Shown in pieces: positions 13,951 to 37,266 of a stretch of 64,000 bases of DNA. Location: assembly GCF_024298765.1 (NCBI RefSeq), contig NZ_CP101210.1. The stretch is one strand, 5' to 3'. Every line of letters starts with the position of its first letter. The first letter of the stretch is position 1. Position numbers and translations under genes: made by a program. The notes below the pieces were generated by a model. It did no database searches and was not told where the DNA came from. It saw nothing but the letters and a program-made list of their open reading frames with translations. The DNA comes from Escherichia coli. Its GTDB lineage: Bacteria; Pseudomonadota; Gammaproteobacteria; Enterobacterales; Enterobacteriaceae.

Positions 13951-14159
13951 ATCAGAATGATATTGAAGCCATGATTCAGCGTTATACGGAAGCTGAAATG
14001 GCGGTGCTGGACGGAAAATCCGTCACTTTTAATGGTCAGCAGATGACCATGGAAAACTTATCTGAGATCCGGCAGGGGCGGCAGGAGTGGGAGCGCCGCC
14101 TTGCGGCTCTGATTACACGACGACGGGGGCATCCCGGGTACCGGCTGGCGAGGTTCTGA
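13947..14159 (+). CDS. head-tail joining protein gpW-like
   Basis: About 70 aa between terminase and portal; GGAGG upstream. Confidence 0.55.
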   Translation: MNQNDIEAMIQRYTEAEMAVLDGKSVTFNGQQMTMENLSEIRQGRQEWERRLAALITRRRGHPGYRLARF

Positions 14160-15667
14160 TGGCAATTCTTGATGATGTGATTGGCGTTTTTTCACCAGGA
14201 TGGAAAGCGGCAAGGCTGCGTTCCCGAGCGGTGATCCAGGCTTATGAGGCCGTAAAAACGACGCGGACACACAAAGCCCGACGGGAGAACCGAACTGCCG
14301 ACCAGTTAAGCCAGTACGGGGCCGTGTCGTTACGTGAGCAGGCCCGTTACCTTGATAACAACCACGATCTGGTCATTGGTGTATTTGACAAGCTGGAAGA
14401 ACGGGTGGTGGGGAAAAACGGGATTATTGTCGAGCCACATCCGGTATTACGCAATGGTGCCATTGCCCGTGACTTGGCAGCGGAGATACGTACCCGATGG
14501 AGTGAATGGTCTGTCAGTCCGGAAGTCACCGGGCAGTTTACCCGTCCGATGCTGGAACGTCTGATGCTGCGTACCTGGCTGCGCGATGGTGAGGTGTTTG
14601 CCCAGATGGTTTCCGGGCGCATAAACAGCCTGACGCCTTCTGCCGGTGTTCATTTCTGGCTGGAGGCGCTCGAGCCGGACTTTATTCCCATGACCAGTGA
14701 TGAGAGCAACAGGCTGAATCAGGGCGTGTTTGTTGATGACTGGGGGCGTCCCGAAAAATATCTGGTGTATAAAAGTCGTCCTGTATCCGGACGGCAGATG
14801 GAAACCAAAGAAGTGGATGCAGAGCGAATGCTGCATCTTAAATTTGTTCGCCGTCTGCACCAGATGCGCGGGACGTCTTTATTGTCCGGTGTGCTGATCC
14901 GCCTCAGCGCCCTGAAAGAGTATGAAGATTCTGAGCTGACTGCAGCAAGGATCGCCGCTGCTCTGGGGATGTACATCCGGAAAGGCGACGGACAGAGCTA
15001 TGAAACGGATGGTAATGACAGCAAGGAGAATGAACGCGAGCTTACCATTCAGCCAGGCATTATTTACGACGATCTGAAACCCGGCGAAGAAATCGGAATG
15101 GTGAAGTCGGATCGTCCCAATCCTAACCTTGAAACTTTTCGTAATGGTCAGTTGCGTGCCGTGGCGGCGGGCAGTCGTCTGAGTTTTTCCAGTACGGCAC
15201 GCAACTATAACGGCACTTACAGCGCCCAGCGTCAGGAACTGGTTGAGTCTACTGATGGCTACCTGATCCTGCAGGACTGGTTTATTGGTGCCGTCACCCG
15301 CCCGATGTATCGTGCATGGCTGAAACAGGCTGTGGCATCCGGTGTTATCAGGCTACCCCGCGATCTTGACCGTTCTTCACTGTATACCGCGGTGTATTCC
15401 GGACCAGTGATGCCGTGGATTGACCCTGTTAAGGAGGCTGAGGCCTGGAAAATCCAGATTCGTGGTGGAGCGGCGACAGAATCAGACTGGGTACGTGCTG
15501 GTGGTCGTAATCCGGATGATGTCAAACGTCGGCGCAAGGCCGAAATTGATGAAAACCGCAAGCTGGATCTGGTATTTGATACCGATCCGGCCAGTGATAA
15601 AGGAGGCAGCAGTGCCGCAACGAAACGACAGGAGCCGCAGCACACCGACGACCAGTCCGAAGAATAA
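14159..15667 (+). CDS. portal protein (lambda gpB-like)
   Basis: About 502 aa from the ATG that overlaps the gpW stop; position and size as lambda B. Confidence 0.7.
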   Translation: MAILDDVIGVFSPGWKAARLRSRAVIQAYEAVKTTRTHKARRENRTADQLSQYGAVSLREQARYLDNNHDLVIGVFDKLEERVVGKNGIIVEPHPVLRNGAIARDLAAEIRTRWSEWSVSPEVTGQFTRPMLERLMLRTWLRDGEVFAQMVSGRINSLTPSAGVHFWLEALEPDFIPMTSDESNRLNQGVFVDDWGRPEKYLVYKSRPVSGRQMETKEVDAERMLHLKFVRRLHQMRGTSLLSGVLIRLSALKEYEDSELTAARIAAALGMYIRKGDGQSYETDGNDSKENERELTIQPGIIYDDLKPGEEIGMVKSDRPNPNLETFRNGQLRAVAAGSRLSFSSTARNYNGTYSAQRQELVESTDGYLILQDWFIGAVTRPMYRAWLKQAVASGVIRLPRDLDRSSLYTAVYSGPVMPWIDPVKEAEAWKIQIRGGAATESDWVRAGGRNPDDVKRRRKAEIDENRKLDLVFDTDPASDKGGSSAATKRQEPQHTDDQSEE

Positions 15668-15680
15668 TTCCTGGTTCAGG

Positions 15681-17639
15681 ATGCAGGCTGGTCACCAGAG
15701 TGACGCGGATATTTATATTTATGACGAGATTGGTTTCTGGGGTGTTACAGCGAAGCAGTTTATCAGTGATCTGAATGCACTGGGCGATATCACCCACATT
15801 AATCTCCATATTAATTCACCGGGTGGCGATGTCTTTGAAGGCATCGCCATTTTTAATGCGCTGAAAACACATGGAGCGTCCATTACCGTTTATGTCGACG
15901 GTGTGGCGGCGTCAATGGCGTCGGTCATTGCGATGGTGGGAAACCCGGTCATTATGCCGGAAAACACTTTCATGATGATTCATAAACCATTTGGCTTTAC
16001 GGGCGGTGATGCGGAGGACATGCGCACCTATGCCGACCTGCTCGATAAAGTTGAGGCGGTTCTGTTACCCGCTTATGCACAGAAAACCGGGAAAACCACC
16101 GATGAAATTGCTGCCATGCTGGCGGATGAGACCTGGATGTCCGGTGCCGAATGTCTGGCACATGGATTTGCTGATCAGGTAACGCCAGCCGTTAAGGCAA
16201 TGGCATGTATTCAGTCAAAACGTACAGAGGAATTTAAAAAGATGCCGGAATCCATTCGAAACATGATTACTCCGCCACGCAACAGTGCTCCACGCGTACA
16301 GGATGATGAACCTGCAGCCTCCCGGACGCCAGTGCAGGCAGCAGCACCCGTGGTGGATGAAAACAGTATCCGTGCGCAGGTACTGGCAGAGCAAAAAGCG
16401 CGTGTAAACGGTATTAATGATCTGTTTGCCATGTTTGGCGGGCGTTATCAGACGCTGCAGGCTCAGTGTCTTGCCGATCCTGAATGTTCGCTGGAGCAGG
16501 CCCGCGAAAAGCTGTTGAACGAGATGGGGCGCGAGTCCACGCCATCCAATAAAAATACCCCGGCTCATATTTATGCCGGTAACGGTAATTTTGTGGGGGA
16601 CGGGATCCGCCAGGCGCTGATGGCGCGTGCCGGATTTGAAAAAACCGAACGTGATAATGTCTACAACGGGATGACCCTGCGTGAATATGCCCGTATGTCA
16701 CTGACTGAACGGGGTATTGGGGTTTCCAGTTATAACCCGATGCAGATGGTCGGTGCGGCGTTCACACACAGTACGTCTGACTTCGGTAATATTCTGCTGG
16801 ATGTTGCGAACAAAGCCATTCTGCAGGGCTGGGAAGATGCTCCTGAAACCTATGAACAGTGGACGCGGAAAGGTCAGTTGTCTGATTTTAAAATTGCCCA
16901 TCGTGTGGGTATGGGGGGCTTCAGTGCTCTGCGTCAGGTGCGTGAAGGGGCGGAATATAAATACGTCACCACCGGAGATAAACAGGCCACTATTGCACTG
17001 GCGACCTATGGCGAGCTGTTCAGTATCACCCGTCAGGCCATTATCAATGATGATCTGAATATGCTGACCGATGTCCCGATGAAGCTGGGCCGTGCGGCGA
17101 AATCCACCATTGCCGATCTGGTTTATGCCATTCTGACGTCTAACCCGAAAATCTCCACAGATAATGTAAGTCTGTTCGATAAAGCGAAACATGCAAACGT
17201 ACTGGAGAGCGCTGCAATGGACGTGGCATCGCTGGATAAAGCCCGCCAGTTGATGCGCGTTCAGAAAGAGGGGGAGCGTCATCTGAATATTCGTCCTGCG
17301 TTCGTACTGGTACCGACGGCGATGGAGTCTGTTGCTAACCAGGTCATTCGCTCCTCAAGTGTCAAGGGGGCTGACATTAACGCCGGTATTATTAACCCGG
17401 TGAAAGATTTTGCGACCGTTATTGCAGAGCCTCGTCTTGATGATAACAGCCAGACCACCTTCTACCTGGCTGCGTCCAAAGGCTCCGATACGATTGAAGT
17501 GGCTTATCTCAACGGTGTGGATACGCCATATATTGATCAGATGGAGGGCTTCAGTGTGGATGGCGTGACAACGAAAGTGCGTATTGACGCCGGTGTCGCG
17601 CCAGTTGATCACCGCGGTCTGGTGAAATGTACGGCGTAA
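15681..17639 (+). CDS. fused prohead protease (ClpP/S14-like), scaffold-like linker and major capsid protein
   Basis: About 652 aa; N-terminal region has ClpP-like motifs (INSPGGDV..., catalytic-Ser context GVAASMASVIA); C-terminal ~350 aa reads as a major capsid protein. Confidence 0.6.
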   Translation: MQAGHQSDADIYIYDEIGFWGVTAKQFISDLNALGDITHINLHINSPGGDVFEGIAIFNALKTHGASITVYVDGVAASMASVIAMVGNPVIMPENTFMMIHKPFGFTGGDAEDMRTYADLLDKVEAVLLPAYAQKTGKTTDEIAAMLADETWMSGAECLAHGFADQVTPAVKAMACIQSKRTEEFKKMPESIRNMITPPRNSAPRVQDDEPAASRTPVQAAAPVVDENSIRAQVLAEQKARVNGINDLFAMFGGRYQTLQAQCLADPECSLEQAREKLLNEMGRESTPSNKNTPAHIYAGNGNFVGDGIRQALMARAGFEKTERDNVYNGMTLREYARMSLTERGIGVSSYNPMQMVGAAFTHSTSDFGNILLDVANKAILQGWEDAPETYEQWTRKGQLSDFKIAHRVGMGGFSALRQVREGAEYKYVTTGDKQATIALATYGELFSITRQAIINDDLNMLTDVPMKLGRAAKSTIADLVYAILTSNPKISTDNVSLFDKAKHANVLESAAMDVASLDKARQLMRVQKEGERHLNIRPAFVLVPTAMESVANQVIRSSSVKGADINAGIINPVKDFATVIAEPRLDDNSQTTFYLAASKGSDTIEVAYLNGVDTPYIDQMEGFSVDGVTTKVRIDAGVAPVDHRGLVKCTA

Positions 17640-17725: not shown

Positions 17726-18049
17726 ATGGCAAAGAATTTTGTAGAAGAAGGAAAAACGGTGGCGATTGTTGCCAGTGCAGCCATCAGCAGCGGAGATCTG
17801 GTGCAGGTGGGTGATGTTTTTGCGGTGGCGCTGACCGATATTCCACAGGGTGAAACAGGCGACGGCATGACCGAAGGTGTGTTTATCCTGCCTAAACTGA
17901 AAACGGATGACATGAAAACGGGTAAGAAGGTTTATCTGAAGTCCGGAAAAGTTCAGCTGACTAACAGCGGCTCTGATCCGCTGGTCGGGGTTGTCTGGGC
18001 AGATGCCGGAACCAGTGCAGAAGAAGTGCCGGTAAAACTCAATGTCTGA
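17726..18049 (+). CDS. small head protein (decoration or head-completion, lambda FI position)
   Basis: 107 aa following the capsid gene; GGAGA ahead of ATG 17726. Confidence 0.4.
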   Translation: MAKNFVEEGKTVAIVASAAISSGDLVQVGDVFAVALTDIPQGETGDGMTEGVFILPKLKTDDMKTGKKVYLKSGKVQLTNSGSDPLVGVVWADAGTSAEEVPVKLNV

Positions 18050-34053: not shown

Positions 34054-34644
34054 TTATATATCAGGCGTCTGATTTTTTGCTTTAGCTCTTAAAATGGTTT
34101 GCCGCGAGGTTTTGAATTCTTGGGCAATGTCACTTATATTTATACCTGACTTAATTTGCTCTAGTACCCTCTGTATTTGTTCATCATTTAACACAGGTGG
34201 GCGACCAAATCGCTTTCCTGCGCCCCGTGCTCTTAATATCCCTGAATGAGTACGCTCAAGTAAAAGGTCTCGCTCAAATTCAGCGACTGCTGAAATTACT
34301 TGCATCATCATTTTTCCAGGTGGACTGGTCAGGTCAACGCCCCCCAATGCTAAGCAATGCACTTTGATACCTGCTTTGGTCAGTTGTTCCACCGTTTTAC
34401 TGATATCCATTGGATTACAACCGAGGCGATCCAGTTTTGTGACAATCAATGCATCACCTCTTTTCAGTCGATCAAGCAACTGGTTAAAACCAGGACGCTC
34501 ACTGGTTGCTGCTGAGCCGCTAATTTGTTCTTCAATTATTTGCTGAGATTTGATGTTAAAACCTGCACTTTCGATTTCCCGACGTTGATTTTTGGTTGTC
34601 TGTTCCAGAGTTGATACCCGACAGTAAGCATAAATTCGAGACAT
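34054..34644 (-). CDS. pin: serine DNA invertase (Pin/Gin/Hin family)
   Basis: 196 aa; N-terminal [12 protein letters not shown] with catalytic-Ser context and a C-terminal HTH; adjacent to tail fibre genes. Confidence 0.8.
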
Positions 34645-35982: not shown

Positions 35983-37266
35983 ATGGATTTCCAGTTATAT
36001 TCGCTCGGTGCAGCGTTAGTGTTTCATGAAATATTTTTTCCTGAATCATCAACGGCAATGGCGTTAATTCTGGCAATGGGAACCTACGGTGCAGGTTATG
36101 TGGCGCGTATTGTCGGAGCATTTATTTTCGGCAAAATGGGCGACAGAATAGGGCGTAAAAAAGTGCTCTTTATTACCATCACCATGATGGGGATCTGTAC
36201 CACCTTAATTGGTGTGTTACCGACCTATGCACAGATTGGTGTTTTTGCACCCATCTTGCTGGTGACGCTGCGTATTATTCAGGGATTGGGTGCAGGTGCG
36301 GAAATTTCCGGTGCCGGTACGATGCTGGCGGAATATGCGCCAAAAGGTAAGCGCGGAATTATCTCCTCATTTGTGGCTATGGGAACTAACTGCGGAACCT
36401 TAAGCGCAACGGCAATCTGGGCCTTTATGTTCTTCATTCTCAGTAAAGAGGAACTGCTGGCGTGGGGATGGCGTATACCGTTCCTGGCGAGCGTTGTCGT
36501 GATGGTCTTTGCTATCTGGTTGCGTATGAATCTGAAAGAAAGCCCGGTCTTTGAGAAGGTTAACGACAGCAACCAACCGACAGCAAAACCTGCACCTGCT
36601 GGTAGCATGTTCCAGAGCAAATCCTTCTGGCTGGCAACAGGACTGCGTTTTGGTCAGGCAGGTAACTCCGGGTTAATTCAGACTTTCCTTGCAGGCTATT
36701 TAGTACAGACGTTATTGTTTAACAAAGCAATTCCAACAGATGCATTGATGATCAGTTCGATTCTCGGCTTTATGACCATTCCGTTCCTTGGTTGGTTATC
36801 CGATAAAATTGGTCGCCGGATCCCGTATATTATTATGAATACCTCTGCGATTGTGCTGGCGTGGCCAATGCTTTCTATCATCGTAGATAAAAGCTATGCC
36901 CCGAGCACCATTATGGTTGCACTGATTGTGATTCATAACTGTGCGGTGCTGGGATTATTTGCTCTGGAAAACATTACCATGGCAGAAATGTTCGGCTGTA
37001 AAAACCGCTTTACCCGGATGGCTATTTCAAAAGAAATTGGTGGTCTTATCGCTTCCGGTTTTGGTCCTATCCTGGCGGGTATTTTCTGCACCATGACGGA
37101 ATCCTGGTATCCGATCGCCATTATGATCATGGCATATTCAGTGATTGGTTTAATCTCTGCGCTGAAAATGCCAGAAGTGAAAGACCGTGATTTAAGTGCG
37201 CTGGAAGACGCTGCGGAAGATCAACCGCGTGTTGTAAGAGCTGCGCAACCTTCCAGAAGTCTTTAA
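35983..37266 (+). CDS. ydfJ: MFS (metabolite:H+ symporter family) transporter YdfJ, N-terminally truncated
   Basis: 427 aa starting within the conserved WYDF-like region (MDFQLYSLGAALVFHEIFFP), lacking the usual ~25-aa N-terminus; in-frame TGA 6 nt upstream of the ATG. Confidence 0.7.
   Translation: MDFQLYSLGAALVFHEIFFPESSTAMALILAMGTYGAGYVARIVGAFIFGKMGDRIGRKKVLFITITMMGICTTLIGVLPTYAQIGVFAPILLVTLRIIQGLGAGAEISGAGTMLAEYAPKGKRGIISSFVAMGTNCGTLSATAIWAFMFFILSKEELLAWGWRIPFLASVVVMVFAIWLRMNLKESPVFEKVNDSNQPTAKPAPAGSMFQSKSFWLATGLRFGQAGNSGLIQTFLAGYLVQTLLFNKAIPTDALMISSILGFMTIPFLGWLSDKIGRRIPYIIMNTSAIVLAWPMLSIIVDKSYAPSTIMVALIVIHNCAVLGLFALENITMAEMFGCKNRFTRMAISKEIGGLIASGFGPILAGIFCTMTESWYPIAIMIMAYSVIGLISALKMPEVKDRDLSALEDAAEDQPRVVRAAQPSRSL

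Follow-up and report, generated by a model that had tools for sequence, protein, structure and literature searches.

[quoted passage not shown] In HK97 gp5 and the D3 capsid protein, a phage protease cuts away an N-terminal scaffold "delta" domain that is fused 1:1 (PMC12749128, PMC10275583). Phage JBD30 makes its scaffold (gp33), protease (gp37) and capsid protein (gp38) as separate proteins (PMC11445458), unlike the fusion protein that we describe here from a window of 64,000 nucleotides of Escherichia coli DNA (contig NZ_CP101210.1). The features of its gene are collected in Table 1.

Table 1. Coordinates of the fusion gene, its parts and its neighbors in the window. All amino acid numbers of the fusion protein are counted from ATG 15681.
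Feature	Position	Strand	Details
Portal gene (lambda gpB family)	14159..15667	+	Pfam Phage_portal_2, E = 5e-82; 21% identical to lambda B
Shine–Dalgarno sequence AAGGAGG	15600..15606	+	5 nt upstream of GTG 15612
Full protease–scaffold–capsid coding sequence, most likely start	15612..17639	+	675 aa, 73.5 kDa, stop TAA; ATG 15681 is residue 24
N-terminal 23 residues including conserved SWF motif	15612..15680	+	Overlap with portal 3′ end up to 15667
ClpP-fold (peptidase S14-like) prohead protease domain, aa 1–170	15681..16190	+	Pfam, NCBIfam, Foldseek
Predicted catalytic residues	Ser78 15912–15914; His101 15981–15983; Asp165 16173–16175	+	
Conserved junction, aa 171–200	16191..16280	+	F-x-x-x-P motif (FKKMP here); alignment of relatives
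Candidate internal start, Met188	ATG 16242–16244	+	SD-like GAGG 11 nt upstream, −6.0 kcal/mol
Pro/Ala-rich disordered linker, aa 201–223	16281..16349	+	pLDDT <50; hypervariable
Three-helix scaffold-like domain, aa 227–284	16359..16532	+	Helices pLDDT 89–96; conserved
Second disordered segment, aa 289–299	16545..16577	+	pLDDT <50 in both models
HK97-fold, Mu-gpT-like major capsid protein domain, aa 304–652	16590..17636	+	Pfam, profile search, Foldseek
Capsid cement/decoration gene	17726..18049	+	Pfam Phage_cement_2, E = 1e-20; also Phage_cement (E217 gp24/Pam3 gp6)

The reading frame is open, with neither a stop nor a frameshift, from position 15420 to the TAA at 17637–17639 on the plus strand. 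Counted from the ATG at 15681 it encodes exactly 652 residues, which bears out an earlier note on this DNA that had described a single ORF of about that length. Translation of the fusion gene most likely begins at the GTG at 15612 and not at this ATG. The energy of the duplex with the anti-Shine–Dalgarno sequence is −11.6 kcal/mol at the GTG as against −2.2 kcal/mol at the ATG, and the duplex formed by AAGGAGG is the strongest among all in-frame start candidates of the gene. Neither the Shine–Dalgarno sequence nor the GTG varies in loci L004 and L005 (77% identical), and no other in-frame start lies between 15612 and 15681. The N termini of the family follow the pattern M-x(1-8)-W-[FY]-x-[IM]-x-A, and the W-[FY]-x-[IM]-x-A motif is retained by relatives at 36–54% identity; here it reads SWFRMQA and begins upstream of ATG 15681. 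GTG 15612 is the start chosen by the RefSeq and DDBJ annotators, while phage records annotate the ATG (652 residues). With translation starting at the GTG, the last 56 nt of the portal gene are shared with the fusion gene, whose product is then 675 residues long.

At the N terminus, the ClpP-like protease that the earlier note had read from sequence motifs is upheld by domain models and by fold. Pfam CLP_protease covers residues 23–168 (E = 4e-36), with 216 bits the domain clears the cutoff of 120 set for NCBIfam NF045542 ("head maturation protease, ClpP-related"), and Foldseek superposes about 170 residues on ClpP structures with target-normalised TM scores of 0.78–0.82 and an rmsd of about 2 Å. 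The Ser, His and Asp of the GxAAS(M) and MIH(x)P motifs are all present in the protein, at Ser78, His101 and Asp165, which we take to be the canonical ClpP catalytic positions. Ser78 and His101 occur in all 53 protease-bearing relatives (35–54% identical). Asp165, the third residue of the putative triad, is kept in only 76% of them, a point against the polyprotein reading given below. Peptidase_S49 has no Pfam match in the fusion protein, and the SppA_dom model reaches 22 bits against a cutoff of 155.

The protease domain is followed by a conserved junction, in which Pro189 is nearly invariant among relatives, and then by a disordered stretch at residues 201–223 (NSAPRVQDDEPAASRTPVQAAAP) whose length and sequence both vary extensively among relatives. 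What had been called a charged, Pro/Ala-rich linker is indeed rich in these two residues (43%, compared with 16% over the whole protein), but its charge is not distinctive, with 22% charged residues, which is not above the protein average. Nor is the segment between the two ends simply a linker: besides the disordered residues 201–223, it holds a conserved three-helix domain (residues 227–284), with helices at residues 227–250, 257–265 and 271–284 in the AlphaFold model and with Arg241 invariant across 55 sequences. This domain may serve as a scaffold, to judge from where it lies, how well it is conserved and how it aligns, short of significance, with the C-terminal portion of lambda Nu3; the register is the same in two alignments, with Nu3 alone giving an E value of 0.1 and a probability below 1%. 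The second disordered segment, residues 289–299, may be the zone in which maturation cleavage frees the capsid domain.

The C-terminal part is a capsid protein, as the earlier note had also read it. Pfam Phage_capsid_4 matches residues 352–649 (E = 7e-55) and Mu-like_gpT residues 512–584, the modeled structure has the HK97 fold, with spine helix and A and P domains, and a profile search with the domain finds the JBD30 capsid protein (8rkc, E = 1.4e-12). The full-length AlphaFold model (pLDDT 88) has two folded ends, a three-helix middle and two disordered segments. Because Foldseek gave only ClpP matches with the full-length model, a second model was needed, which spans residues 225–652 (pLDDT 80). 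Foldseek matches of the capsid part are phage capsids (phiXacJX1, D3, HK97 Head II and P4/P2) and encapsulins, with E values of 4e-9 to 1e-7 and a probability of 1.00. The head module of mEp460_4F5 has no other annotated capsid gene, suggesting that this domain forms the icosahedral shell of the virion. The presence of protease, scaffold-like segment and capsid protein in one polypeptide is thus supported by domain HMMs, a full-length family HMM and two structure models.

There is nothing unusual about the fusion gene, nor does it represent a new kind of system: its family is curated, is annotated as a matter of routine and has members in more than a third of complete E. coli genomes. The fusion protein scores 985.2 bits, against a cutoff of 475, with NCBIfam NF045540 (scaf_prot_MCP1), the [quoted passage not shown], its residues 9–651 falling on positions 2–651 of the 652 in the model. 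It also matches PHROG 133 over its full length; PADLOC gives no match to it. Compared with NF045540 members, the order of domains and the slot between portal and cement genes are the same, and there is no difference of substance beyond the annotated start. At least 80% of the gene is found in 2002 of 5426 complete E. coli genomes, and in some 2000 E. coli genomes RefSeq labels it as the fusion protein. In the cultured or viable phages mEp460, cdtI, Tritos and Ayreon the gene is 99–100% identical, and no separate capsid gene is annotated in the head module. Long-tailed Stx2 phages and many prophages of E. coli, Shigella and Salmonella (RefSeq proteins) carry members of the family as well. The same continuous architecture appears in 77 deposited phage records, and it is kept at full length in more than 100 cluster representatives, down to 35% identity. 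The only two split representatives, P0165 and P0228, each a seemingly natural stand-alone scaffold–capsid protein, proved to be artefacts; in locus L006 there is a frameshift and the capsid frame runs on upstream into homologous sequence, and in L007 the gene is cut by the end of the contig. In many phage records the gene goes by no more than "protease", "Nu3" or "head-tail preconnector", names from which the major capsid protein cannot be recognized. Our literature searches found no experimental work on the fusion family (by mass spectrometry of virions, N-terminal sequencing, mutation of the active site or structure determination); the family is abundant yet apparently experimentally unstudied.

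We are confident, if not certain, that the gene encodes a single head-assembly polyprotein of 675 residues, in which a ClpP-fold serine protease is followed by a flexible linker, then by a small helical domain resembling a scaffold, and last by an HK97-fold capsid domain. The polyprotein would assemble as a self-contained unit and then undergo autoproteolysis. Direct support comes from the open frame, the identities and folds of the domains, the conservation of Ser and His, the membership in the family and the position between the portal and cement genes; autoprocessing, the positions of cleavage and a 1:1 stoichiometry are what we infer beyond this. In such a pathway, the C-terminal domains would come together as hexamers and pentamers around the portal, each subunit bringing a protease and a scaffold of its own to the inside of the procapsid. 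The proteases, concentrated in the closed shell, would then cleave the disordered segments and one another, and the fragments would exit, leaving behind the mature capsid protein, about 38 kDa in size. Its N terminus may lie somewhere in about residues 285–345, although this placement is uncertain. DNA packaging would lead to expansion of the shell, which would be stabilised by the cement protein of the adjoining gene.

ClpP activity normally requires heptameric rings, a requirement that does not obviously fit hexameric and pentameric capsomers. If no internal start is used, each of the roughly 415 subunits of a T = 7 procapsid, a triangulation number suggested by the ~45-kb genomes of these phages, would bring its own ClpP-fold protease, which would need to be activated in the geometry of the hexamer or pentamer and not in a heptameric ring. 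We put this forward tentatively, with slightly less than even confidence. If true, a very common E. coli prophage gene would by itself make up a natural system for assembling and maturing a capsid.

A minor alternative is that the locus makes nested products, as do lambda C/Nu3 and herpesvirus UL26/UL26.5. Initiation at Met188 would yield a 465-residue scaffold–capsid protein that forms most of the shell, with the protease present on a minority of subunits. Its ATG falls exactly at the boundary between protease and scaffold and has an SD-like GAGG, but the spacing of 11 nt is long, and these SD-like bases are explained by protein constraint because they are codons of a conserved E-E-F. The Met is kept in Pseudomonas phage BR204a (56% identical), with an SD-like GGAG 9 nt upstream, and also in a Providencia phage, and gene callers choose Met188 where the upstream part of the gene is missing. 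However, Met stands at position 188 in just 6 of 98 family representatives (the nearest subclade), with Ala, Val, Thr or Ile usual there; a start at this codon can therefore not be essential across the whole family. In a sliding scan, synonymous divergence from an Stx2d phage reaches its minimum around Met188 (1 of 18 codons), in a single sequence pair for which recombination and selection are not separable; the low divergence covers residues 138–197 and may instead be a recombination block. Since HK97 and D3 use only about 60–90 protease copies per procapsid (PMC12749128), a 1:1 ratio of protease to capsid protein would be unusual. Taking both sides together, we regard nested products as unlikely and prefer the undivided polyprotein.

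It is highly improbable that the N-terminal domain acts as an ordinary ATP-dependent ClpP subunit partnered by the host's ClpX or ClpA, for instance on host or regulatory proteins. Its closest matches in the PDB, by sequence and by fold, are cellular ClpP proteins, yet all cellular ClpP equivalog models score it far under their cutoffs (TIGR00493, for example, gives 59.7 against 308.6 bits), whereas the phage head maturation model places it above its own. The domain is, moreover, covalently attached to a capsid protein whose gene sits between the portal and cement genes. We give practically no credence to the long ORF being an artefact or pseudogene, with protease and capsid genes joined by a lost stop or a sequencing error: chimeric single-member database entries do occur in the same neighborhood (such as 1135-residue portal+fusion proteins) and offer nothing specific, and this reading is effectively refuted by comparative data, namely the continuous architecture in the 2002 genomes, 77 phage records and more than 100 clusters, a curated full-length HMM for the fused form, and the finding that it is the split versions that are the artefacts.

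The undivided fusion gene sits in a head module ordered as terminase (gpA family), a small W-like ORF, portal (Phage_portal_2), fusion gene and Phage_cement_2. That the prophage is a mosaic, with a tail but not a head of lambda type, was proposed earlier and agrees with our comparisons. Identity to the lambda counterparts is 50–55% for the tail proteins Z, U and V and 33% for G, against 24% for TerL and 21% for the portal, both of which Pfam nevertheless places with lambda gpA and gpB; neither hhalign (E = 0.65) nor BLASTP relates the capsid domain to lambda E. The cement protein shows no similarity to lambda D, and a PDB sequence search with it is without a match. By type, the protease is S14/ClpP and not S49, the capsid protein is Mu-gpT-like, and the decoration protein is Phage_cement_2 and not gpD. 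The slippery heptamer GGGAAAG of lambda G/T occurs in the window at a chance-level count and is absent from the G/T junction. A full-length CapRel-type homologue is encoded at 663–1688. A capsid protein first made as a 73.5-kDa precursor would be relevant to testing capsid-triggered activation, or self-tolerance, of this toxin. The capsid gene of the Qin-site prophage is herewith identified, and its probable start corrected.

The fusion gene resembles lambda in overlapping the 3′ end of a lambda-family portal gene, as C overlaps B, and its product resembles lambda gpC in having a protease of the ClpP/crotonase-type clan followed by a helical, scaffold-like segment. The similarity to gpC is remote and shows only at profile level: an hhalign comparison of the family profile with gpC gives a probability of 92% and an E value of 5.7e-7 across both parts (BLASTP E = 0.064). 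In lambda, however, gpC is an S49 protease with the nested scaffold Nu3, and gpE is separate; here the protease is S14-type and the capsid domain is attached. The decoration gene follows the capsid domain here, whereas it precedes the capsid gene in lambda. With HK97 and D3 the protein shares the fusion of a scaffold, here a putative one, to an HK97-fold capsid domain. The earlier comparison with HK97-like phages as fusing these functions holds to that extent and fails for the protease, which in HK97 and D3 comes from a separate gp4 gene of the herpesvirus-protease type (the 60–90 copies mentioned above); here a ClpP-fold domain lies on the same chain. Among proteins of solved structure, Mu gpT and JBD30 gp38 (PDB 8RKC) are nearest in sequence to the capsid domain. 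MD8 gp5 has the same ClpP-like N terminus, a middle with a Nu3-like pattern of helices and a Mu-gpT-like HK97-fold C terminus, in a lambdoid genome with a lambda-family terminase, and differs in its host and its longer linker; the related protein of Pseudomonas phage BR204a is 56% identical to the fusion protein over its full length.

The reading frame of 15681-17639, on the plus strand, has no stop codon or frameshift between 15420 and the TAA at 17637-17639 and encodes 652 residues from the ATG at 15681, from which residues are numbered here. In Pfam, residues 23-168 match CLP_protease (E 4e-36) and residues 352-649 match Phage_capsid_4 (E 7e-55); a Mu-like_gpT match lies within the latter. 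The score for the NCBIfam family NF045540, aligned over its whole length, is 985 bits (curated cutoff 475), and that for the NCBIfam domain model "head maturation protease, ClpP-related" is 216 bits (cutoff 120); PHROG 133 matches over the full length. The agreement of Pfam, NF045540 and PHROG 133 confirms the proposal of the earlier note that a single ORF joins a protease to a capsid protein, both domains being supported by the profiles.

The fusion protein was modeled with AlphaFold from an alignment of 55 diverse relatives (mean pLDDT 88), and its segments are collected in the table. Ser78 (GVAAS-M) and His101 (MIH-KP) are kept in 53 of 53 protease-bearing relatives, and Asp165, present in the window protein, in 76% of them. 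The linker, which varies in length and sequence even between close relatives, had been described as charged and Pro/Ala-rich; the second attribute holds and the first is not distinctive, its share of charged residues being no higher than the average of the whole protein. The three-helix segment is, in the model, a domain and not linker. When residues 225-652 were modeled separately (pLDDT 80), Foldseek matched phage capsids (phiXacJX1, D3, HK97 Head II and P2/P4) and encapsulins with a probability of 1.00, and a profile search matched the capsid protein of JBD30 ("Mu GpT domain"), a solved structure (E 1.4e-12).

Features of the window and segments of the fusion protein
Feature	Window position	Strand	Residues	Remark
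RelA/SpoT-domain protein, 341 aa	663-1688	+		Same prophage as capsid gene
Recombinase-family gene	34054-34644	-		Near right end of prophage
ClpP fold			1-170	Foldseek against ClpP structures, target-normalised TM 0.78-0.82
Conserved junction			171-200	F-x-x-x-P motif; Pro189 nearly invariant
Linker			201-223	Disordered, pLDDT <50; Pro+Ala 43%
Three-helix domain			227-284	Confident prediction; Arg241 invariant
Second disordered segment			289-299
Capsid domain			304-652

The ATG at 15681 is probably not the true start. Of all in-frame candidates, the GTG at 15612 is served by much the strongest ribosome-binding site, a perfect AAGGAGG 5 nt upstream with an anti-SD duplex of -11.6 kcal/mol; the duplex at the ATG is worth -2.2 kcal/mol. 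Two phage loci with only 77% identity over the gene retain this SD and the GTG unchanged, and the flanking bases differ there. Relatives at 36-54% identity begin with M-x(1-8)-W-[FY]-x-[IM]-x-A, and because the window counterpart of this conserved motif, SWFRMQA, begins upstream of the ATG, the GTG is favored. In RefSeq and in the DDBJ records of Stx2 phages the gene begins at the GTG, 69 nt upstream of the ATG; GenBank phage entries (mEp460, cdtI, Tritos and others) have the ATG as its start. With the GTG as start, the most likely product has 675 aa and 73.5 kDa, and the gene shares 56 nt with the 3' end of the portal gene, similar to the overlap of C with B in lambda. Of the span first assigned to the gene, 15681-17639, the end and the length counted from the ATG stand, and the start probably does not.

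In hhalign, the family profile aligns to both the protease and Nu3 parts of lambda gpC (probability 92%, E 5.7e-7). The scaffold region by itself aligns to Nu3 in an unchanged register at an E of 0.1, and because this is not significant, a scaffold role for the middle part is one that we infer from its position, conservation, helical character, weak Nu3 similarity and the curators' label for NF045540, scaf_prot_MCP1.

The best-supported reading is that the fusion protein is a self-contained assembly polyprotein, all of whose enzymatic steps we infer; no protein-level data on the family were found in the literature. That an internal start at ATG 16242 (Met188) gives a nested product like that of lambda C/Nu3 seems to us improbable. 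This codon lies exactly at the protease/scaffold boundary with a weak SD-like GAGG in front, and Met188 is retained in Pseudomonas and Providencia relatives, but only 6 of 98 family representatives have Met at this position and the SD-like bases are codons of conserved residues. The site also falls within a stretch of low synonymous divergence, although that scan is based on one sequence pair. In this pair, with the Stx2d phage copy, divergence is unusually low at 16092-16271 (residues 138-197) and 15675-15851 (residues -2 to 57), down to 1 of 18-20 comparable codons compared with 40-79% in the rest of the gene, which could be due to a recombined block or to a signal embedded there. In the self-contained polyprotein, capsid domains would build the shell around the portal with the protease and scaffold parts turned inward, the proteases would presumably cleave the flexible segments and one another, the fragments would exit, the shell would expand upon packaging, and the cement protein (gene 17726-18049) would then bind it.

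As annotated by RefSeq in a genome of 99.9% identity, and by comparison with NZ_CP024138, the prophage lies at the Qin site, flanked by dicB and a truncated ydfJ. It occupies ~1-37300, with the dicB side beyond the left edge and the truncated ydfJ at 35983-37266, and carries Qin-type cargo (hokD, rem, ydfU, cspB/cspI/cspF, essD and rrrQ). Its RelA/SpoT-domain protein matches PDB 7ztb_A and 9erv_A over the full length (E 2.6e-34) as well as the PADLOC candidate system PDC-S33. Because 7ZTB is the CapRel(SJ46) structure, this gene is assigned to the CapRel type, with a predicted fused toxin-antitoxin as its product.

Identity to the lambda counterpart is 50%, 54% and 55% for Z, U and V, 33% for G, 24% for TerL, still in the GpA Pfam families, and 21% for the portal, still in Phage_portal_2. 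BLASTP of the fusion protein against lambda C, Nu3 and E returned nothing significant, the decoration gene belongs to Phage_cement_2, not gpD, and the head-closure gene to the Gifsy-2 family. Judged by these identities and families, the head module is a distant relative of lambda's in terminase and portal and of a different type in protease, capsid and decoration proteins, and the tail module joined to it is clearly lambda-like, in support of the mosaic prophage proposed earlier, with a head that is not lambda-type and a tail that is. The G-like and T-like tail chaperone ORFs (20121-20845) lie side by side, as they do in lambda. Their junction, where the sequence reads ...CCGGAAAAGTCCTGA, lacks lambda's slippery heptamer GGGAAAG, so a frameshift site, if any, is other than lambda's.

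Of the 5426 complete genomes of E. coli, 2124 have a match to the gene and 2002 contain at least 80% of it; RefSeq names it there as the fusion protein. Copies 98.6-100% identical occur in the cultured or deposited phages mEp460, cdtI, Tritos, Ayreon, HannyBb and phi458, and long-tailed Stx2 phages have a version at 77%. Among 1.8 billion cluster representatives searched, 6757 matched at E <1e-30, with full-length fusions at 36-54% identity making up more than 100 of the best 150; at least 80% of the protein is present in 77 phage records, Providencia and Pseudomonas phages among them. Two representatives that appeared to be stand-alone scaffold+capsid proteins, P0165 and P0228 (loci L006 2411-4386 and L007 1-1442), both start at the Met equivalent to Met188 and are artefacts, one of a draft-genome frameshift and the other of a contig end. 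Four further representatives, P0033, P0034 (1135 aa), P0006 (1027 aa) and P0061 (796 aa), combine the fusion protein with domains of the portal, terminase or minor tail proteins within one ORF. The first three come from 1-2 contigs each and P0061 from 37; all four are probably frameshift or assembly chimeras.

The likeness to HK97 drawn in the earlier note extends to the scaffold, which is fused to the capsid protein in that phage, but not to the protease, which is separate and unrelated there (PMC12749128). The three-in-one arrangement has been proposed for gp5 of Pseudomonas phage MD8 (PMC8508860, PMC9855967) and is standard annotation in actinobacteriophages (bioRxiv 10.1101/2020.01.10.891226; PMC12760985). 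The fusion is of a kind already known, and the window gene is an ordinary member.
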